From an uncultured delta proteobacterium (GTDB lineage: Bacteria; Desulfobacterota; Binatia; Binatales; Binataceae), in NCBI GenBank assembly GCA_963794325.1, contig CAWCDG010000005.1:256001-320000 (forward strand): DNA of 64,000 nucleotides, given 5' to 3'. Positions 5,256-12,527 of this stretch are shown piece after piece (position 1 is the first letter of the stretch; every line of letters begins with the position of its first letter). The notes under the pieces are model-generated. The model was not told where the DNA came from. It ran no database searches and saw nothing but the letters and a program-made list of their open reading frames with translations. The translations under genes were made by a program, and so were the position numbers.

Positions 5256-5284
5256 TTGACACTGGCTATCGGCTGTTCTAGATT
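5256..5284 (+). promoter_or_regulatory. Sigma70-type promoter for the exosortase cluster
   Basis: TTGACA (5256-5261), 17-nt spacer, TAGATT (5279-5284); about 40 nt upstream of ATG 5326. Confidence 0.75.
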
Positions 5285-5325: not shown

Positions 5326-7074
5326 ATGGCGAAAGGTGCGCATTCGCTGGCACAGGGTACTACCCTGGAACCGTCGATCGCGCCGGATACGATTCCGATC
5401 GCGTCGGGCTCGCGTGATCTCAATCGCCAGGTCTCCGCACCCCCATACGTCGCGTTCCTGATCGTCGTTCTGTCCGGCGAAGTTATAGCTTACTACCGTT
5501 TTTCAAATTCAGCGGCGATTCTCATGCAAGGCGGTCCCGACGTCCGCTACTTGCTGATCATGCTCACGGAATGGATCCGCTACATGATCCTGGCTGCGGC
5601 AGCGACGACGATTCTGCTGAGCCGGAACGAGTTTGCCGCGACAGCGATGCGGATGTGGGTCACCCCGGTTCCGATTTCCAGACGCAAGAAAATTCTCGCG
5701 ATTCAAGTGATACTGGCGGGCGCGCTGGTGGCGTGGAGCGGCATCCGTCCCAGGTATTTTGCGTCGCCGGAAGCTGTCGCGGGCTGGGCGCTGGTCCGGC
5801 TGGCGCTGGCCATGGGCGCGATGGCGACGTTCGCGATCGCATTTACTCCACTCGAGGTCTGGCGCGAATGGTACCTCGCGCGGCCGGGCGCATTCCGAGC
5901 AGGCCTCGTCGTTGGACTCGTCGCCGGGCCCGTCCTGCGAAACTTCCTTCCAATGTTCTCTTCGGCAATGTGTGAGATTCCTATTCTGACGGCGGCGATG
6001 TACGACTTTACCATTTGGATCGCGGCCGCGACGCTGAGGGCGCTTGGACAGCATGCGGTGATCAACTGGCAGCGCCAGTCCATCGGGGTCCCGGGTTTCA
6101 GGGTTATTGTCTCGCCGCAATGCGCGGGAATCGATGGCATCGTTGTTATCACGCTTTTTCTTACGGCATATCTCTGGTTTTGCCGCCGCGATTTGCGATT
6201 CCCGGTTGCTCTGATCCTTCTTCCGCTGGGCATGATTCTGAGTTGGATTTTGAACGACGTCCGGCTCACGGCGTTGATAATGATTGGCCCGCACAATCCG
6301 AAGATCGCGATAGGATTTTTTCACACGATCGCAGGATGGGCCTTCCTCAATCTGCTGGGAATCGCGATGGTTGTATCGAGCCGGACTATGTCCATCTTCC
6401 GCGCGGAACCACTCGACGCGCTCCCGCAGGCGAGCGAGCGAACCTCGTCAGCGGACATGTATATCCTTCCGATGCTGGTGACACTCGCGGTCGGGATGCT
6501 GACCCGGCCGTTCGCGGCGTCACTCGACTTTCTATATCCGTTGACCGTGATTGCAACCGCCGCGGTCTTGTTCGCGTATCGCGGCAAGATCTTGGCACTC
6601 GGATGGAATCCAGACTGGACCGCGCCAGCGGCGGGCGCCGTGGTTTTTGCGATCTGGATTGCGATCGCGCGACAGTCCGGGACGTTGCACGATTCGGCGA
6701 TGGCGGCTTCGTTGCAAAGCCTTCCTGATTGGGACCGCTGCTGCTGGCTAGTATTCCGGGTGGCGGGCGCGGTGATCAGCGTGCCTATCGCGGAAGAGTT
6801 GTTTTTTCGCGGTTACCTGTTGAGAAAGCTGGTCTCGGCGGACTTCGAATCCGTCGATGCGCGGCAGTTCACCTGGATGTCTTTTCTAATCTCGTCGATG
6901 TTATTCGGCGTGCTGCATCGTAATTGGATCGGCGGCATCCTTGCGGGGATGGGCTTCGCAATCGTGCAATATCGGCGCGGACGGCTGACCGACGCAATCG
7001 TCGCGCATTCCGCCTGCAATGCGCTGGTGGCGGCGTACGTGATAGCGACGGGCAGTTGGGGACTATGGAATTAG
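5326..7074 (+). CDS. xrtE: Exosortase E-like / CPBP (CAAX) intramembrane protease fusion
   Basis: Polytopic membrane protein. Exosortase Cys-Arg-His triad in SPQCAGIDG, LNDVRL and FFHTIAGW. C-terminal CPBP motifs EELFFRGYL, FGVLH and AHSACN. Architecture matches the exosortase E/protease of VPEID-CTERM systems. Confidence 0.88.
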   Translation: MAKGAHSLAQGTTLEPSIAPDTIPIASGSRDLNRQVSAPPYVAFLIVVLSGEVIAYYRFSNSAAILMQGGPDVRYLLIMLTEWIRYMILAAAATTILLSRNEFAATAMRMWVTPVPISRRKKILAIQVILAGALVAWSGIRPRYFASPEAVAGWALVRLALAMGAMATFAIAFTPLEVWREWYLARPGAFRAGLVVGLVAGPVLRNFLPMFSSAMCEIPILTAAMYDFTIWIAAATLRALGQHAVINWQRQSIGVPGFRVIVSPQCAGIDGIVVITLFLTAYLWFCRRDLRFPVALILLPLGMILSWILNDVRLTALIMIGPHNPKIAIGFFHTIAGWAFLNLLGIAMVVSSRTMSIFRAEPLDALPQASERTSSADMYILPMLVTLAVGMLTRPFAASLDFLYPLTVIATAAVLFAYRGKILALGWNPDWTAPAAGAVVFAIWIAIARQSGTLHDSAMAASLQSLPDWDRCCWLVFRVAGAVISVPIAEELFFRGYLLRKLVSADFESVDARQFTWMSFLISSMLFGVLHRNWIGGILAGMGFAIVQYRRGRLTDAIVAHSACNALVAAYVIATGSWGLWN

Positions 7075-8118
7075 CGCCTCGACCTTTCCGGCTTACGACC
7101 GGGGCGAGCGCAGCGGTGTTCTCGATTTTGGCGGCCGGCCTGATTGCCGGTTCCATCCTCTATACACACATCGCCGCGACCCACCCGGGTGCACTGGTGG
7201 GAATGCCGGCGCTTGCGGGGATGAACAACCTGAGGCTGTCGCGCTTTCTGCTGGGCGCGGGGATCTGGGCTGCGGCCGTACTGATGTGGAGCTTCGCGCT
7301 CCAGCGGCTATTTCCGATGGACGCGTCCGATCGCATGATGACGCGAGGCCTCTGGTTCGATTCGATCTGGTTCGGCGGGGAGCTGGCGCGCCAACTGACC
7401 TGGATACCCCTGTATTTCGTTTTTCTCATCTGGATCAAGCGCAACCTGCTCGGCAACTTCGAATTGATTGCGCCAGGAACGATGCCACGCGCGATGCTGC
7501 TGATCGTAGGCAATATTGGCCGGTGATTTTCTCGCCTACCTAAGTCACATCGCACGGCATCGATTCGATTTTCTGTGGAATTTTCATGCCGTCCACCACT
7601 CGCAAAGGGAACTCAACTTATTCACGCAGCATCGCTTTCACGACCTTGATACTTTCGCCGACATGGCGATCAGGACTTTGCCGGTTTTGATTCTGACGCC
7701 GGGTCTCGTCGTGGTTGGCGTTTACAATACTGTGGCGCTGATTCATTTTCGCCTCTACCATTGCCCGATCCGATCGAACTACGGACCGTTGCGATACATC
7801 CTGGTGACGCCGCAGTCTCATCGCATTCATCACGCGAGCGATCCGCGCCTGCAGAATAGTAATTTCGGAATATTCTTTAGCGTGTGGGATCATATTTTCG
7901 GGACGCAGCATCGCTCCTACGATGAGTACGAAGTACAGCTCGGCCTTCAGGATGTTGCCTTTCCCGTCGAACAGGACGCTTCCGTAGGCGAATTTGTCGC
8001 AGCGTATGCGGCGCAACTGGTCTATCCGCTCGCGAGACTTCTACACGCGACTACACCCGCAACGGCGCCAGAGTTAGTGGGCAACAAAGGATTTGAAATA
8101 ACGAAGTCATCCGAGTAG
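7065..8118 (+). CDS. Fatty-acid hydroxylase / sterol desaturase family protein, split by a 1-nt frameshift near 7510
   Basis: ATG 7065 overlaps the xrtE stop. His boxes HIARH, HAVHH, HRFH, HRIHH and NFG..WDHIFGT. Removing one G at 7509-7510 joins the frames (..LIVAILAGDFLAY..). Confidence 0.85.
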
Positions 8119-8149
8119 ATAAGGCTGTCACTGGGGAGGATCAGATTGG

Positions 8150-8338
8150 ATGAGAGATGCGTTGCGAGTCGCCGGGGTTGTGGCGTTGATCGTATTCGTT
8201 CTCGTACCGGGAGCCGCGTTTGCGGGGGCCCCAGTGGCGGCGCCTGAGCTCGATCCAGGTCTAGGTATAGCGGGGTTGGCGTTGCTGGGTGGCACCGCCG
8301 CTTTTGTAGTCGAGCGCTATCGCCGGCGTTCGAAGTAA
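8150..8338 (+). CDS. APELD-CTERM micro-substrate 1 (core GAPVA)
   Basis: SD GGAGG, 25-aa signal peptide ending AFA, APELDP, hydrophobic helix, ERYRRRSK. Confidence 0.88.
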   Translation: MRDALRVAGVVALIVFVLVPGAAFAGAPVAAPELDPGLGIAGLALLGGTAAFVVERYRRRSK

Positions 8339-8382
8339 GAGACTGGTAACCGGGGGAGATTGGGTTCGTCAGAGAGGATCAG

Positions 8383-8568
8383 ATGGAGAATGCGTTGCGA
8401 GTGGCTGGGGTTGTGGGATTGATAGTCTTCGTTGTCGCGCCCAGAGCCGCGTTAGCAGGTGCGGTCGGCGCACCTGAGCTCGACCCGAGCCTCGGCATCG
8501 CGGGGTTAGCGTTGCTGGGTGGCACCGCCGCTTTTGTAATCGAGCGTTATCGGCGCCGCGCGAAATAA
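8383..8568 (+). CDS. APELD-CTERM micro-substrate 2 (core GAVG)
   Basis: SD GAGGA, signal peptide ending ALA, APELDP-TM-ERYRRRAK; paralog of its neighbours. Confidence 0.88.
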   Translation: MENALRVAGVVGLIVFVVAPRAALAGAVGAPELDPSLGIAGLALLGGTAAFVIERYRRRAK

Positions 8569-8587
8569 CCGGGAGGAGTCGGACTCA

Positions 8588-8773
8588 ATGAAAGATATGA
8601 TCCGCTTCGCGGGGGTCCTTGCGTTGATTGCATTCGTTCTCGCACCGGGAGCCGCGTTCGCTGGTATCACGCCGGCGCCTGAGCTCGATCCAAGCCTGGG
8701 TATCGCTGGGTTGGCGTTGATGGGTGGAACTGCAGCCTTTGTAATCGAGCGTTATCGGCGGCGTTCGAAATAA
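8588..8773 (+). CDS. APELD-CTERM micro-substrate 3 (core GITP)
   Basis: SD GGAGGAG, signal peptide ending AFA, APELDP-TM-ERYRRRSK. Confidence 0.88.
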   Translation: MKDMIRFAGVLALIAFVLAPGAAFAGITPAPELDPSLGIAGLALMGGTAAFVIERYRRRSK

Positions 8774-8792
8774 CCGGGAGGAGTCGGATTCA

Positions 8793-8975
8793 ATGAAAGA
8801 TACGATCCGAGTCGCGGGGGTCCTTGCATTGATCGCGTTCGTTCTCGCACCGGGAGCCGCGTTGGCGAGTGTGGGCGCGCCTGAGCTTGATCCAGGCATG
8901 AGCGTCGCTGGGTTGGCGTTGCTGGGCGGTTCAGCCGCTTTTGTAATCGAGCGTTATCGGCGCCGCCCGAAGTAA
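8793..8975 (+). CDS. APELD-CTERM micro-substrate 4 (core SVG)
   Basis: SD GGAGGAG, signal peptide ending ALA, APELDP-TM-ERYRRRPK. Confidence 0.88.
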   Translation: MKDTIRVAGVLALIAFVLAPGAALASVGAPELDPGMSVAGLALLGGSAAFVIERYRRRPK

Positions 8976-9002
8976 GACCTCGATCCGTTCCTTTGCAGAA
9001 GG

Positions 9003-10454
9003 CTATCGGGCCTGCAGTTTCGCCAAGAACCGTTCCTTTAATCCATCGAACGGGCCGTTCGACATGAACAGCGCGATGTCGCCTGAGCGCGCGTCGGCGA
9101 GCATCCGCTCGAGGATTTCATCGTTCGACGCGCACGCAATCGCATGCGCTCCGCGCGCGCTGATCGCACTGGCGAGCGCGCCAGTTTCGAGCCGCTCGTT
9201 CGGGGCGATCTGATCGTTCTCCTTGAAATAGACCGGCCCCAGGTAAACCCGCGAGGCTCGATCGAATGCGCACGCGAATGCGTTTTGGAAAACGTTACGC
9301 CGCGCCGTGTTCGAGCGTGGCTCGAACGCCGCAAGTATACGACGGCCGGGAAATCGCTCGGCGATCGCTTCGAGCGTGACGCCGATCGCCGTCGGATGAT
9401 GCGCGAAGTCGTCCACCACGGTCACTCCTGCCGCCTCGCCGATCACCTGCTGCCGCCGCACCACGCCTTTGAAGGTCCGCAGGCCGGCGGCGATCTCGTC
9501 GCCGGAAACTCCAAACGCGCTGAGCAGCACGTAAACGCCGAGCGCATTGGCGACGTTCATGCGGCCGCCGATCGGCAGATGGATCGATTCGTGGATTCGA
9601 TCGCCGTCGCGCGTCACCGAAAATCTCGCGCCGTCTGAGCCTACCGTCACGTCCGTCGCGCGATATTCACCTTCGCGCAGTCCGTAGGTGAGCCGTCGCG
9701 AGCGAGCGCTCGCGCTGACTTCGAGTGCGTGCGGAAAATCGGCGCATACCGCGAGCACGCGCCACGAATCCATCTGATCGACGAGCGCACGGAAGCTCGA
9801 CTTCACGTGCTCGAGATCGCGATAGATATCCGCATGATCGAATTCCACCGCGGTGATTATCGCGCCGCTGGCGCGGTAGTGCAGAAACTTCGGGCCTTTG
9901 TCGAAAAATGCGGTGTCGTACTCGTCGCCCTCGATCACGAAGTCGGCGCCATTGCCTAACCGGTAGTTCGAGCCGAAATCGCTTGCGACACCTCCAACCA
10001 GCATCGATGGGTCGCGGCCCGCGGCTTCGAGCACGTGCGCCATCATCGCGGTTGAAGTGGTCTTGCCATGCGTTCCCGTGATCATCAGCACGCGCCGGTC
10101 CTTCAGAAAAAAATGCCAGAGCGCCTCGGGCATCGAGAGATATGGAATCGGCGAAGCGAGGAGCGCGACGGCTTCGGGATTGGCCGGCACGATCACGTTG
10201 CCCACCACGGCCAGGTCGGGAGCAGGCGATAAATTCGCGGGCGAAAATCCGGTCATCAATTCGACTCGCGAATTTTTGAGCAGCGACAGGGTTGGCTCGT
10301 AGAGCTGATTGTCGGAGCCGGTGACAGAAAATCCGCGCTCGACCAGCATCCCGGCCAGCGCAGCCATCGCGGTGCCGCCGACTCCTACAAGGTGCACGCG
10401 GCGGACGGACGCTGGAATGCGCGCGAGGCGCGATGCGCTTGCAACATCAGCCAC
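9003..10454 (-). CDS. mpl: Murein peptide ligase (UDP-MurNAc:tripeptide ligase)
   Basis: GVGGTAM, GTHGKTTS, EGDEYDTAFFDKGPKF, DDFAHHP, FEPRSNT. Confidence 0.88.
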   Translation of the reverse strand: MADVASASRLARIPASVRRVHLVGVGGTAMAALAGMLVERGFSVTGSDNQLYEPTLSLLKNSRVELMTGFSPANLSPAPDLAVVGNVIVPANPEAVALLASPIPYLSMPEALWHFFLKDRRVLMITGTHGKTTSTAMMAHVLEAAGRDPSMLVGGVASDFGSNYRLGNGADFVIEGDEYDTAFFDKGPKFLHYRASGAIITAVEFDHADIYRDLEHVKSSFRALVDQMDSWRVLAVCADFPHALEVSASARSRRLTYGLREGEYRATDVTVGSDGARFSVTRDGDRIHESIHLPIGGRMNVANALGVYVLLSAFGVSGDEIAAGLRTFKGVVRRQQVIGEAAGVTVVDDFAHHPTAIGVTLEAIAERFPGRRILAAFEPRSNTARRNVFQNAFACAFDRASRVYLGPVYFKENDQIAPNERLETGALASAISARGAHAIACASNDEILERMLADARSGDIALFMSNGPFDGLKERFLAKLQAR

Positions 10455-11577
10455 TGGCGAGTGCGTCCATGATCAAATCGTGAATCTTCGGGCGGAAGTC
10501 GCGAATCTTCTGATTGTCGCGCCGCGGATGAACGCGGTTGGTCAGCATCGAGATCGCAACTTCGCTCTCCGGCTCGATCCAGATAGAAGTCCCGGTGAAG
10601 CCGAGATGCCCGACAGCCGCAGGCGAGAAGCGATGGCCCGAGCTGGAATGCTCGGCCGACGGCGTGTCCCATCCGAGCGCCCAGGTCGAGCCGGGCACGG
10701 TCGCATCGCGGGTCCAGAACTCGCGGATTATTTTCTGCGGCACGAAATCCGAGCGTCCCGCGTAACAGGCGATCAGCTCGCCAGCGATTCGATCGACCTC
10801 GCGCACCGGCGCGAACAGTCCCGCATGACCGGCGACTCCGCCCATCGCGAAGGCGTTCTCGTCGTCAACCTCGCCGACCAGCAGTCGCTTGCGTGAAGGG
10901 CAAATCTCGGTTGGCGCGAACATGTCGGGGACCGGCTCGAGGCGCCGCGACCGAACATGCGAGATGTCTATATAATCGGTCGCGCGCAAACCGAGCGGGC
11001 GGAAAATTTTCTCGCGGCAGAATCGGTTGAGCGCGACGCTCGATACCTTCTCGATCGTTTCGCCGAGCAGGATGAATCCAAGATCCGAGTATATAGTTTT
11101 GGTCGCGGGCGTCGCTTCGGGTTTCTCGCGATGAATCTCCTCGTAGGCGAACTCCTTGGCGCCGTAGCTCGCCATGAAATTCACCCGCCCGCCTTTTTCG
11201 ATTTCCGCAATCCGCTGATAGAACGGACGCCACGCCGCCAGGCCCGAACAATGCGCCAGCAGATGCCGAAACGTGATGACGGTCTTGCCGTGCACGCCAA
11301 AGTTCGGGAAAAAGCGCGTCGCGCGATCGTCGAGGCGAAACTTGCCGTCGCGCGCCAGAATCATCAGCGCGACCGTCGTCGCCAGCGCCTTGGTGAGCGA
11401 CGACAGGTCGTAAACAGTTTCGAGTTTGGCTGGCGAACGGGCCGGCTCGATCGACCTGAATCCGAACGCGCCTTCGAACGCGACATCCGCGCCGTGCCGC
11501 ACGACCAGCGTCGCGCCGGGAATCACCCCTTGCTCGACCGCGTCGTTGAAAGCCTGCTCGACCTCACTCCAACCCAA
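10447..11577 (-). CDS. Serine hydrolase, beta-lactamase/AmpC-like family
   Basis: SxxK (SLTK), YSDLG, GHAGLF, HLGFTGT, LTNRVHP. Confidence 0.9.
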   Translation of the reverse strand: MGWSEVEQAFNDAVEQGVIPGATLVVRHGADVAFEGAFGFRSIEPARSPAKLETVYDLSSLTKALATTVALMILARDGKFRLDDRATRFFPNFGVHGKTVITFRHLLAHCSGLAAWRPFYQRIAEIEKGGRVNFMASYGAKEFAYEEIHREKPEATPATKTIYSDLGFILLGETIEKVSSVALNRFCREKIFRPLGLRATDYIDISHVRSRRLEPVPDMFAPTEICPSRKRLLVGEVDDENAFAMGGVAGHAGLFAPVREVDRIAGELIACYAGRSDFVPQKIIREFWTRDATVPGSTWALGWDTPSAEHSSSGHRFSPAAVGHLGFTGTSIWIEPESEVAISMLTNRVHPRRDNQKIRDFRPKIHDLIMDALASG

Positions 11578-11600
11578 CGCCCATCCTCCAAAAACTGCCG

Positions 11601-12527
11601 TTAATGTGAAACGGCCGGCTCCGTAAAAATAATCCGGCGCGCGCTGGAATCGATTCGCGCGACCACGCCGAACGGAATCGTAAAATTCTCAGTGCCATGC
11701 CCGGCTTCGACGCCGTACAGCACGGGACATCCGAGGCCCGCGGTCTGCTCGGCAGCGAAGCGCGCTATCAATTGAGTCTCCTGCTCATTTCCATCGATCG
11801 CGCGAATCGCGCCGAAAACAATTCCCGCAACTCTGCCGAGCGCTCCCGACTGGCGCAACTGCACGAGCATCCGGTCGATACGATAAGCCTTCTCGCCGGT
11901 GTCTTCGAGGAACAAAATTCGCCCGTCGAAGCGCGGCTCGAACGGCGTGCCGATCATCGCAACCAGCACCGACAGGCATCCGCCGATAACTTCGCCCTGC
12001 GCTCTCCCGGGATGCATCGCTTCGCGCGCCTCGAGTTCGAAGCCGTCGAGCTTGCCGGTGAGCAGTCCTTGCAGGTGTTCGAGCGCGCGCGGACTCAAGC
12101 CTCGGGCAAAATCCATCGCGACCATCGGTCCGTGAAACGACACAATTCCTGCTAGATCGACCAGCGCGTTGAGCAGGAATGTGGGGTCCGAAAAGCCGAC
12201 GAAAATTTTTGGCGTGCGCGCAATCGCCTTGAAATCGAGGAGCGGCAGCAGCCGCCCGCATCCGTAACCGCCACGCGCAGAAAAAATCGCCTTGACCTCG
12301 GGGTCGGCGAAGTAGGTTTGAAGCTCACTCGCGCGCTCGCGATCATCGCCAGCTAAAATCCCGGAACGCGCCAGCACCCGCTCCGAAACTTTGACTCGGT
12401 AGCCCATCGAGCCAAGCACGTTGACGCCGCGCTCGAGATGCGCCCGCTCGATCGCGGCGGCGGACGCGACGACGGCTACCGTCTCGCCCGGTTGGAGCGC
12501 GTCAGGTTTGATTGGTTTGTTCTTCAC
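11601..12527 (-). CDS. ldcA: LD-carboxypeptidase (peptidase S66)
   Basis: RGGYG, GFSD nucleophile, HGPM, LFLED, GH. Confidence 0.9.
   Translation of the reverse strand: MKNKPIKPDALQPGETVAVVASAAAIERAHLERGVNVLGSMGYRVKVSERVLARSGILAGDDRERASELQTYFADPEVKAIFSARGGYGCGRLLPLLDFKAIARTPKIFVGFSDPTFLLNALVDLAGIVSFHGPMVAMDFARGLSPRALEHLQGLLTGKLDGFELEAREAMHPGRAQGEVIGGCLSVLVAMIGTPFEPRFDGRILFLEDTGEKAYRIDRMLVQLRQSGALGRVAGIVFGAIRAIDGNEQETQLIARFAAEQTAGLGCPVLYGVEAGHGTENFTIPFGVVARIDSSARRIIFTEPAVSH

Follow-up and report, generated by a model that had tools for sequence, protein, structure and literature searches.

Four tandem short-precursor genes behind an exosortase E/CPBP protease fusion gene as its probable dedicated VPEID-CTERM-like substrates

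The window analysed here is a 64,000-nucleotide stretch of a contig from an uncultured member of the Binatia, in which Mfd, a PDZ protein, a 2-hydroxyacid dehydrogenase, XrtE, a fatty-acid hydroxylase, Mpl, a beta-lactamase-family protein and LdcA are encoded as neighbours. About 1.1 kb 3' of xrtE, on the same strand and behind the hydroxylase gene, begins an array of four tandem open reading frames (ORFs) (Table 1). Each encodes a leader of 25 residues, a variable middle, or core, of 3–5 residues and a near-invariant tail of 31 residues, and 37 of the 62 columns in an alignment of the four proteins are invariant. The promoter-like site ahead of xrtE might, from its position, serve as an operon promoter, and the promoter scan returned 2 sites in the region where 1.7 were expected from shuffles. 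A terminator scan 3' of precursor 4 gave nothing convincing (5 sites, 6.4 expected); the only site there, 8921–8935, lies inside the precursor 4 gene itself.

Table 1. Features of the xrtE–precursor region, numbered from the first nucleotide of the window
Feature	Position	Strand	Description
Promoter-like site	5256–5284	+	TTGACA-17-TAGATT; 42 nt 5' of the xrtE start; 10/12 matches
XrtE, exosortase E/CPBP (CAAX-type glutamic) intramembrane protease fusion	5326–7074	+	582 aa; TIGR04162, PF02517
Membrane fatty-acid-hydroxylase-superfamily gene	7065–8118	+	PF04116; ATG overlaps the xrtE stop
Shine–Dalgarno (SD) sequence of precursor 1	8133–8140		GGGGAGGA
Precursor 1	8150–8338	+	62 aa; predicted 25-aa signal peptide, core GAPVA, APELDP-TM-RRR tail
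Precursor 2	8383–8568	+	61 aa; core GAVG
SD sequence of precursor 3	8571–8578		GGGAGGAG
Precursor 3	8588–8773	+	61 aa; core GITP
SD sequence of precursor 4	8776–8783		GGGAGGAG
Precursor 4	8793–8975	+	60 aa; core SVG

The regular layout of the array had been recognized in a preliminary description, and its sequence observations were reproduced throughout. The last three gene starts are spaced by 205 bp, and Tandem Repeats Finder likewise assigns a period of 205 to positions 8465–8975 (2.5 copies, 83% matches, score 715). A purine-rich SD sequence stands 6–10 nt 5' of the ATG in each of the four genes, and the spacer that carries the GGGAGGAG SD is present in two copies, 8563–8597 and 8768–8802, with a single C/T difference. 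Alignment confirmed that all four leaders are exactly 25 aa long with an A-F/L-A site ending at residue 25 and that all four tails conform to APELDP(G/S)..(I/V)AGLAL(L/M)GG(T/S)AAFV.ERYRRR.K, and the ORF translations gave the same four cores. The array sequence is contained in four soil-metagenome DNA runs from one study and in no listed RNA run. Contig pieces of at least 99% identity from runs X1–X3 cover it with no joints seen; X1 is possibly the source sample and so does not count as independent support.

Between the four paralogs pS is approximately 0.40–0.43, and at this divergence dN/dS is 0.31 for the leader and 0.10 for the tail. Moreover, a family profile matched 355 database proteins at E ≤ 0.001 (8000 candidates scored). 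Together, the low dN/dS and the database homologues establish that the four ORFs are real genes. The same pS of about 0.4 indicates that the duplication which built the array is old and not recent. PF27847 is precomputed on many homologues of the precursors, and a few carry the automatic JGI name ‘membrane protein implicated in regulation of membrane protease activity’.

At the extreme C-terminus of each precursor APELDP is followed by approximately 19 hydrophobic or small residues, then by ERYRRRxK and the stop codon. From this order the tail can be identified as a tripartite C-terminal sorting signal, consisting of the APELDP motif, a predicted transmembrane helix and an RRR cluster. The VPEID-CTERM model TIGR04161 was matched over its full length (1–31 of 31) by precursors 1, 2 and 3, with 13.9, 17.6 and 16.4 bits, respectively; precursor 4 gave no match to it at E ≤ 1. 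Since these scores lie under the curated cut-off of 33, the four precursors are best filed as VPEID-CTERM-like and not as formal TIGR04161 members. The same model was matched at E ≤ 1 by 16 of 26 peptides from relatives (best E 7.2e-9). The P, E and D of the motif are invariant in 26 peptides, the four from the window having A for V and L for I by comparison with V-P-E-I-D, and both spellings (V-P-E-I-D and A-P-E-L-D) are found adjoining XrtE in relatives. None of the four precursors matched the PEP-CTERM model TIGR02595 at E ≤ 1. An LPXTG (PF00746) or other sorting identity was rejected, the scores being sub-threshold throughout (for example 10.6–12.1 bits for PF00746, cut-off 20) and attributed to the common helix-plus-Arg-cluster architecture. 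Judged by sequence rules, the leader combines a basic n-region with an h-region of 13 residues; position −6 is Pro, and positions −3 and −1 are Ala. Within the close subfamily the −1 Ala never varies, and the −3 Ala and −6 Pro hardly do (entropy 0.0–0.2 bits).

The enzyme that would act on such a tail is encoded upstream. The XrtE ORF can be assigned with confidence to the exosortase E/protease, VPEID-CTERM family: it scores 204.1 bits against TIGR04162 (E 4.4e-60, model positions 108–515 of 516; cut-off 150), and its JGI and NCBI homologues bear the name ‘exosortase E/protease, VPEID-CTERM system’. The exosortase/archaeosortase signature TIGR04178 is matched at residues 260–349 (46.3 bits, cut-off 23), TIGR03008 in the C-terminal half (147.4 bits, cut-off 81) and PF02517 at residues 474–567 (58.1 bits). 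Ten residues (C266, R313, H333, E490, E491, R495, F527, H531, H561 and N565) do not vary among 12 homologues that are 28–70% identical, and the C-terminal CPBP domain carries EExxxR, FxxxH and HxxxN motifs. Cys, Arg and His are the suspected catalytic triad of exosortases according to the available part of the Haft preprint. The preliminary description had proposed a sortase-like transpeptidase for the array. The follower is indeed the predicted sorting signal of the exosortase encoded next to it; cyclization or polymerization of the cores, which had been proposed at the same time, found no support.

Enzyme and precursors are paired one to few at the level of the genome. XrtE is the sole exosortase-signature match in the source genome, which is 85% complete, and the four precursors are the only ORFs in it that match the full-length profile. 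With a tail-only profile, precursors 1–4 scored 66.3, 67.1, 67.6 and 67.8 bits, and the next match in the genome reached 14 bits (E 0.235). Genome-wide, TIGR02595 gave no match over its cut-off of 16, the best two (13.8 and 13.7 bits) lying away from the array. The four precursors are thus the only predicted substrates of XrtE in this genome. In five relatives that are 92–100% complete, just one to three tail-bearing ORFs were found each, all in open frames of 65–106 aa.

The pairing extends well beyond the Binatia. Tiny precursors adjoin XrtE in 15 of 18 loci from relatives and, by an HMM scan, in 68 of 80 loci from Binatia, Acidobacteriota, Planctomycetota, Gammaproteobacteria and others; the scan, run at E ≤ 0.1, missed at least one real precursor, which was found by eye in locus L099 and raises the count to at least 69 of 80. 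There are one to four such ‘cargo-less’ precursors per XrtE in the related and other-phyla loci. Across 98 XrtE loci no other gene family of at least 100 aa was common to more than 8. The XrtE branch is present in at least 279 species-level genomes; a cultured carrier is Silvibacterium bohemicum S15 (locus L104), and in a related clade (L036, L038 and L040) the XrtE–precursor pair lies within an exopolysaccharide locus. In precursor ORFs from other phyla the core had a median length of 4 residues; of 87 cores, 67 had at most 12 residues, 7 had over 30 and 24 had 0–1; these lengths are approximate and biased short, as they were taken from the last A-x-A-like site before the motif, a site that was lacking in 1 of 88 ORFs. 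Since cargo-less pairing holds in 15/18 related and at least 69/80 other-phyla loci, a short variable core appears to be a hallmark of the whole XrtE system. Larger proteins with this tail numbered four, of 150–225 aa, at E ≤ 0.001 in a search that is counted as weak evidence. Two of them, P0195 and P0196, have a real passenger of approximately 150–190 aa ahead of an APEIDP tail, so that larger substrates do exist elsewhere but seem to be rare in that search.

Variation within the precursors is concentrated in the core. Of 101 close homologues, 96 have a leader of 25 aa and 100 have a tail of 31 aa, which places all length variation in the middle of the peptide. The 101 proteins contain 62 distinct cores, with Gly first in 75, and the cores are built from A, G, V, P, T, S and I, with no Cys or Lys. 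The leader, at a dN/dS of 0.30, and the tail, at 0.14, are both under purifying selection. For the core dN/dS was 0.74, a figure of low power that comes from 19 alignable pairs of 66 with 77 synonymous sites in all, and in these pairs there was no sign of positive selection. Core dN (0.91) is greater than flank dS (0.53–0.67), but homology within the core is uncertain owing to indels. The core therefore looks to be under relaxed constraint. Of the earlier proposal of tandem duplication with diversification focused on the core, the tandem duplicates, the conserved flanks and the variable core stand; the duplication is old, and core variation amounts to no more than relaxed constraint would give.

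A structural model of the complex between XrtE and a precursor peptide gave a median ipSAE of 0.61, against 0.00 for the best of three controls. By the tool's own statement, 58 of 80 solved complexes attain the ipSAE mark, as do 2 of 110 mismatched pairs. At least 61% of contacts are shared between model runs, with a partner pLDDT of at least 52; the complex score is the model's own confidence, and the input alignments were small (12 and 26 rows). As XrtE has no match among PDB chains at E ≤ 0.01, the result is unlikely to reflect memory of a solved complex. In the model, XrtE residues 263, 265–271, 310, 313 and 333–335 make confident contacts with peptide residues 30–35, and XrtE helices with peptide residues 38–57. 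The A-A-P-E-L-D residues are placed at the invariant Cys266, Arg313 and His333. Peptide residues 1–29 make no confident contact with XrtE in the best model run.

Taken together, these data make it probable that the four genes encode dedicated substrates of XrtE and belong to a divergent, A-P-E-L-D-P form of the VPEID-CTERM sorting system. A plausible sequence of events can be proposed. The xrtE, hydroxylase and precursor genes would be transcribed together, with each precursor translated from its own SD. The leader would act as a Sec signal peptide, to be cut by signal peptidase I after A-F/L-A, and the tail would anchor the peptide in the inner membrane by its transmembrane helix and cytoplasmic ERYRRR cluster. 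The exosortase domain may then dock the tail helix, as in the complex model, with A-A-P-E-L-D at Cys266, Arg313 and His333, where the chain would be cut. On the model of sortase, archaeosortase ArtA and rhombosortase, the resulting 6–9-residue peptide would be transferred by its new C-terminus to an acceptor and not to water. Finally, and speculatively, the fused CPBP domain might remove the membrane stub or trim it further.

The acceptor could perhaps be a hydroxylated membrane lipid, as suggested by the co-located lipid hydroxylase. The hydroxylase gene of the window is in two frames, with a break near 7511–7526; the part at 7516–8118 scores 88.1 bits against PF04116, and the gene gave a weak OlsE-like match (88 bits, cut-off 475). 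The gene is a single frame in the orthologous loci L028 and L033, and in the run X1 contig one base fewer at 7511 joins the two frames. PF04116 genes also flank XrtE in L054, L079, L090, L099 and L124. The hydroxylase–XrtE neighbourhood, seen in the window, in 4 of 18 relatives' loci and in 5 of 80 other loci, points to at most a possible link of this gene to the XrtE system.

Exosortase subfamilies were reportedly defined in a 2012 J Bacteriol paper by Haft. The locus agrees with the TIGR04162/TIGR04161 system in that the enzyme scores above the TIGR04162 cut-off and unites an exosortase with a CPBP domain, the substrates combine a predicted signal peptide with a motif-helix-Arg-cluster tail, the genes are adjacent and one enzyme is paired with few substrates. 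It differs in the A-P-E-L-D-P motif and an extra conserved E-R-Y ahead of the Arg cluster, and in gene order, since the peptides of most loci are encoded immediately upstream of XrtE, whereas here the array lies downstream, behind the hydroxylase gene. With XrtA/EpsH and PEP-CTERM the locus has in common a homologous exosortase core, a three-part C-terminal signal that opens with Pro-Glu, and a CAAX-type protease family (TIGR03008) that accompanies the exosortase. PEP-CTERM systems, as far as the available part of the Haft preprint describes them, have many proteins per genome, often large and Ser/Thr-rich; here, in contrast, there are four precursors of the 60-aa class, no PEP-CTERM protein over cut-off and a protease fused to the exosortase. 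ArtA of Haloferax volcanii belongs to the same enzyme superfamily as XrtE, with the suspected Cys/Arg/His triad, and is needed for removal of a C-terminal helix and attachment of a large lipid (from the part of the source available), which provides a precedent for a lipid acceptor in the XrtE system. However, the ArtA substrate is a large S-layer glycoprotein, and the PGF-CTERM system is archaeal, with another motif and no CPBP fusion. For the myxosortase MrtX, the accessible part of the source shows that a tripartite C-terminal tag, MYXO-CTERM, can be cut by a CPBP glutamic intramembrane protease on its own. Its EExxxR and HxxxN motifs are also present in the C-terminal half of XrtE, but MrtX lacks an exosortase domain, and MYXO-CTERM has an invariant, probably lipidated Cys that is absent from the tails in the window.

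A passenger of three to five residues fits poorly with the usual picture of protein sorting to the surface. Because this passenger seems to evolve almost freely, what is conserved would be two targeting signals and not a cargo domain. One bolder reading, which we consider rather unlikely, is that XrtE and its cargo-less precursors do not sort proteins at all and instead produce very short envelope peptides by way of the ribosome. A 6–9-mer would be excised by signal peptidase and exosortase together, and the acyl-enzyme would be resolved either onto a membrane lipid that the co-located hydroxylase-family enzyme has hydroxylated, giving a ribosomally made lipopeptide, or by the peptide's own N-terminus, giving a cyclic peptide, with the paralogues supplying a palette of head groups.

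The AgrD peptides of staphylococci, of about 46–60 aa, have an N-terminal membrane-targeting leader that signal peptidase takes off, then a short hypervariable core, and a conserved C-terminal tail that is cut away by the polytopic membrane Cys peptidase AgrB. The leader-core-tail layout and size of the precursors are similar, and on this logic the array could be a factory for ribosomal peptides or pheromones: the core would be the product, the follower would be cut through an XrtE acyl-enzyme, and the free Gly/Ser amine would close a head-to-tail cyclic 6–9-mer, or water would release a linear one, with a distinct peptide from each paralogue. The many distinct, mostly Gly-first cores between conserved flanks, the several diverged paralogues per genome under purifying selection at both flanks, and an enzyme that is a polytopic membrane Cys peptidase, with the motif adjoining the core placed at its active site in the model, would all be in keeping with it. 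Yet the core shows a dN/dS of 0.74 without positive selection and only small neutral residues, and lacks Cys or Lys as an internal nucleophile, including the Cys that the Agr thiolactone uses. There is also no sequence relationship to AgrD/AgrB and no linked two-component receptor. The RiPP or pheromone signature that the preliminary description had seen could not be upheld, as the 98 XrtE loci have no conserved neighbouring gene for a receptor kinase, an exporter or a further modifying enzyme, and the window has none either. The N-terminal Gly/Ser that it proposed as a nucleophile is a preference specific to this clade; in Acidobacteriota and Planctomycetota, inspection by eye showed that many of the predicted first residues listed are Gln or others, and across other phyla they include Asp, Asn and aromatic residues, with heuristic core lengths of 0–1 in 24/87. 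A clade-specific preference argues against a family-wide N-terminal-amine nucleophile, and the peptide-factory reading is decidedly unlikely.

Less probable still, to the point of being very unlikely, is that the peptides persist as uncleaved two-helix hairpins, the N-terminal helix being a signal anchor and the proteins small subunits or pseudo-substrate regulators of the XrtE/CPBP enzyme that are not consumed. Both hydrophobic segments are conserved, the leader (dN/dS 0.30) more tightly than a generic signal peptide needs, and the loop between them is very short; the JGI name on a few homologues also speaks of regulation. However, an h-region of about 13 residues followed by Pro-Gly and a (near-)invariant A-x-A is the pattern of a cleaved signal peptide, the complex model gives residues 1–29 no confident contact with XrtE, and the invariant P-E-x-D at the Cys/Arg/His site resembles a scissile sorting signal. 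Chance ORFs within a non-coding tandem repeat, which short frames in a 205-bp repeat might suggest, are refuted by tail dN/dS of 0.10–0.14 at pS of about 0.4, an SD for each gene, the 355 homologues and an XrtE pairing conserved across phyla.

As probable dedicated XrtE substrates, the four precursors make the array a further member of a database-defined, uncharacterized XrtE/VPEID-CTERM system, and for the window alone it is ordinary and well explained. A search of the available literature found no relevant paper on XrtE/VPEID-CTERM systems. Exosortases are widespread in environmental bacteria, and we know of no acceptor established for them. Whether they act as one-step transpeptidases is still unclear in the available part of the Haft preprint. 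In the XrtE branch, one enzyme is combined with substrates of 50–80 residues whose mature part is a few residues, so its product should be small enough for direct identification by mass spectrometry. If the short-peptide reading is true, such a minimal substrate would offer the simplest known way to find out what exosortases join their substrates to. There is also a consequence for annotation: among ten sampled XrtE-adjacent peptides from other phyla only one reached the TIGR04161 cut-off, and because the majority of these substrates go unrecognized by the curated VPEID-CTERM model, the precursors are mostly labelled hypothetical.

The array, examined by reading the sequence of 7900–9300 and listing its ORFs, comprises four tandem precursor genes. 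When the four products are aligned, 37 of the 62 columns are invariant. In each of them a 25-residue N-terminal segment (the leader) is closed by A-F/L-A, a core of 3–5 residues follows, and the chain ends in a 31-residue tail in which APELDP is succeeded by a hydrophobic stretch and then ERYRRRxK. Genes 2, 3 and 4 start at intervals of exactly 205 bp, a period that Tandem Repeats Finder recovers as well (2.5 copies, 83% matches), and a spacer bearing the GGGAGGAG Shine–Dalgarno sequence is present in two copies with one C/T difference. The preliminary description was therefore borne out in every detail checked, from the ORFs, leader, cores and tail to the 205-bp spacing and the spacer. The observed array is genuine and can now be accounted for as a divergent representative of the database-defined XrtE/VPEID-CTERM system. 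The proposed tandem duplication is also upheld; approximately 40% of synonymous sites differ among the four paralogues, and therefore the duplications are old and each copy has been maintained.

Coordinates of the features discussed (window positions, unless an xrtE-bearing locus, L, or a genome and contig, G and C, is given)
Feature	Position	Strand	Remarks
xrtE	5326–7074		582-aa product
PF04116 fatty-acid-hydroxylase-superfamily gene	7065–8118, between xrtE and array	+	88.1 bits; weak OlsE-like match
Precursor gene 1	8150–8338	+	62 aa, core GAPVA
Precursor gene 2	8383–8568	+	61 aa, core GAVG
Precursor gene 3	8588–8773	+	61 aa, core GITP
Precursor gene 4	8793–8975	+	60 aa, core SVG
Mur-ligase-family protein, Mpl-like	9003–10454	-	peptidoglycan-recycling-like set
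Beta-lactamase-family protein	10447–11577	-	peptidoglycan-recycling-like set
LD-carboxypeptidase	11601–12527	-	peptidoglycan-recycling-like set
Orphan tiny ORFs of G018	G018:C2:1179652–1179744 and 1295968–1296060		tail-bearing
Orphan tiny ORFs of G027	G027:C11:830207–830299 and C2:336572–336664		tail-bearing
Trp/Pro-rich-core precursors	L128:3082–3378, L129:3027–3377, L037:7835–8056, L109:2823–3290, L055:2388–2735		XrtE-adjacent

The xrtE product matches TIGR04162 at 204.1 bits (cut-off 150) and the exosortase signature TIGR04178 at 46.3 bits (cut-off 23), and a CAAX/CPBP protease domain forms its C-terminal part. It is the exosortase E/protease of the VPEID-CTERM system, and its homologues are named 'exosortase E/protease (VPEID-CTERM system)' by JGI and NCBI. 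In an alignment of 12 homologues (28–70% identity) residues C266, R313 and H333 are invariant, as are E490, E491, R495, H531, H561 and N565 of the CPBP domain. Sorting systems are treated in PMC3237569, PMC11980579 and a preprint (Haft, 2023; 10.1101/2023.06.07.544157), the last of which names Cys, Arg and His as the residues suspected to form the triad of exosortases and archaeosortases. A literature search on VPEID-CTERM, XrtE, TIGR04161 and TIGR04162 found no relevant paper, and the 'exosortase E' match that was examined concerns epsH instead.

The window's genome (4.45 Mb in 10 contigs, 85% complete) contains one exosortase-signature match, and the peptide profile matches exactly four ORFs across it. 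The same four are picked by a tail-only profile at 66–68 bits, with the next-best match at 14 bits (E = 0.235), and a genome-wide search for PEP-CTERM gave no match over the cut-off. In five relatives that are 92–100% complete the tail profile finds just 1–3 ORFs per genome, each in an open frame of 65–106 aa. With one exosortase, four tail-bearing ORFs and these few small ORFs in relatives, XrtE therefore appears to have none but tiny substrates in this lineage. Larger substrates with this type of signal exist outside it, since in the database proteins P0195 and P0196 (192 and 225 aa) a real passenger of ∼150–190 residues precedes an APEIDP-type tail. Two near-complete relatives have orphan tail-bearing ORFs (frames of 65–72 aa) distant from the xrtE gene.

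The tail is built like a tripartite C-terminal sorting signal, in which a motif is followed by a membrane helix and then by a basic cluster. In NCBIfam, three of the four window peptides match VPEID-CTERM (TIGR04161) across the whole 31-position model, at only 13.9–17.6 bits where the cut-off is 33; even at E ≤ 1 the fourth is not matched. Among 10 precursors sampled from other phyla, one reaches 33 bits, five score 21–31 bits and four have no match at E ≤ 0.01. The curated model is narrow, and precursor homologues are mostly labelled hypothetical in the source databases.

A complex was predicted for XrtE (12-row alignment) with precursor 1 (26-row alignment). As judged from the model's own confidence, the median ipSAE was 0.61, whereas the best of three controls scored 0.00; this mark is attained by 58 of 80 solved complexes and by 2 of 110 mismatched pairs. 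The runs share at least 61% of contacts, with a partner pLDDT of at least 52. In the model, XrtE residues 263, 265–271, 310, 313 and 333–335, which include C266, R313 and H333, make confident contacts with precursor residues 30–35 (A-A-P-E-L-D), and precursor helix 38–57 is contacted by XrtE helices. Precursor residues 1–29 are without confident XrtE contact in the best run. Recall of a solved complex is unlikely, because no PDB chain matches the XrtE profile at E ≤ 0.01.

The hydroxylase gene starts with an ATG at 7065, just before the xrtE stop codon (7072–7074), so that the two genes overlap. Near 7511–7526 it is broken into two frames (6924/7065–7526 and 7516–8118). It is a single frame in loci L028 and L033, and in a contig from the soil-metagenome run X1 the two frames are joined by the absence of one base at 7511. 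Either an assembly error (indel) or strain variation probably accounts for the break. PF04116 genes adjoin XrtE in the loci of four relatives (L028, L033, L042 and L045, the last cut by a contig end) and also in L054, L079, L090, L099 and L124, with record titles of delta proteobacterium, Acidobacteriota, Bryobacterales and Vicinamibacteria. As in the window, xrtE precedes the precursors in such loci. This recurrent minority architecture is a hint, and the sole pointer, to an acceptor.

When 8000 candidates were scored with a profile of 26 precursors, 355 proteins matched at E ≤ 0.001, and almost all of them have 59–64 aa; the window's close subfamily accounts for 102 of the 120 matches listed, and 101 of these were parsed. 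Of these 101 homologues, 96 have a leader of 25 aa and 100 a tail of 31 aa, and the stretch between them (including the A/V before PELDP) spans 3–8 aa and takes 62 distinct sequences. Entropy is 2.3–3.2 bits at mid-core, with means of 0.97 in the leader and 0.42 in the tail. The cores consist almost solely of A, G, V, P, T, S and I, with D found five times, R three times and H once; K, E, C, W and Y are absent, and Gly is the first core residue in 75. Nei–Gojobori counts on 12 genes (the window's four plus eight from L028, L033 and L042) put dN/dS at 0.30 in the leader and at 0.14 in the tail. The core value is 0.74, drawn from just 19 of 66 pairs, those of equal length, with 77 synonymous sites in all. 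Core dN (0.91) exceeds flank dS (0.53–0.67), but indels blur core homology, so positive selection on the core is not concluded.

Enzyme identity, pairing, selection pattern and architecture are established, and a pathway can be proposed on them. The precursor would be exported by Sec and cut by signal peptidase I after residue 25, the tail would retain the peptide, and the Cys266 site of XrtE would cleave at the A-P-E-L-D motif, which it meets in the docking model. The resulting 6–9-residue peptide would be transferred to an acceptor; a lipid is a speculative candidate, raised because PF04116 genes recur beside XrtE. The CPBP domain presumably also has a role. The main alternative retains the same enzyme–substrate pair and would yield the core itself as a released peptide, free or cyclic, in the manner of AgrD/AgrB; however, it is without a receptor, an exporter, internal nucleophiles or evidence of diversifying selection, and the Gly/Ser start is clade-specific. 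Persistence of the precursors as uncleaved hairpins is less likely. In the 101 homologues Ala never varies at −1 and hardly varies at −3, Pro is almost fixed at −6 and −2 is variable, as would be expected at the sequence level for cleavage by signal peptidase I. The chief value of the array lies in offering a minimal model substrate for exosortase chemistry.

Chance ORFs are likewise a less likely explanation, and the same build recurs widely. Of 61 genomes searched, 15 have a TIGR04162 match over the cut-off, and among 36 same-genus genomes 16 have one at E ≤ 0.001. On the flanks of 18 relatives' loci the four-peptide profile finds 22 small ORFs with this build, spread over 15 loci (1–4 per locus); the other three are contig-end cuts or partial enzyme matches only. 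A scan of species-representative genomes gave 279 relatives of XrtE, and the best 80 loci were surveyed, with record titles that include Binataceae, Bryobacteraceae, Terriglobia, Vicinamibacteria, Gemmataceae, Isosphaeraceae, Methylobacter, Burkholderiales and Silvibacterium bohemicum. In 68 of these 80 the tail profile detects 88 small ORFs, most of which immediately precede the enzyme gene and many of which are in tandem, and one extra precursor was seen by eye in L099. The build is constant: a signal-peptide-like start, a very short middle, then [V/A/T]-P-E-[I/L/V/M]-[D/N/G], a helix and an R/K cluster. By a rough cleavage-site heuristic that is biased short, the median middle is 4 residues, with 67 of 87 at 12 or fewer and 7 above 30. 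The short hypervariable core thus characterizes the XrtE system as a whole and is not peculiar to the window. When all ORFs of at least 100 aa from the 98 loci were clustered, no other family was common to more than eight loci; the conserved module is the enzyme plus tiny precursors, nothing more. In one precursor subclass the small neutral residues are replaced by Trp/Pro-rich cores of ∼9–40 residues (runs such as WWPWWW and GWGWSGG), and the L069 precursor has a GRGND-repeat core.

In the clade of L036, L038 and L040 (e.g. L038:2314–10750) the precursor–XrtE pair lies within an exopolysaccharide locus that also encodes a polysaccharide export protein and a bacterial sugar transferase and holds four genes of the dTDP-rhamnose pathway. 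The remaining neighbours in the window look unrelated to the array; they are Mfd, a PDZ protein and a 2-hydroxyacid dehydrogenase and, on the opposite strand, Mpl, the beta-lactamase-family protein and the LD-carboxypeptidase. The peptidoglycan-recycling-like set (9003–12527) is syntenic in L033 and L042, with no evident link to the array. L042 (G021:C9:212000–224000) is the syntenic four-copy array of a relative whose genome is 64% complete. There the genes for XrtE, the PDZ protein, the hydroxylase and Mpl are all split into several frames, which suggests an indel-rich assembly rather than decay.
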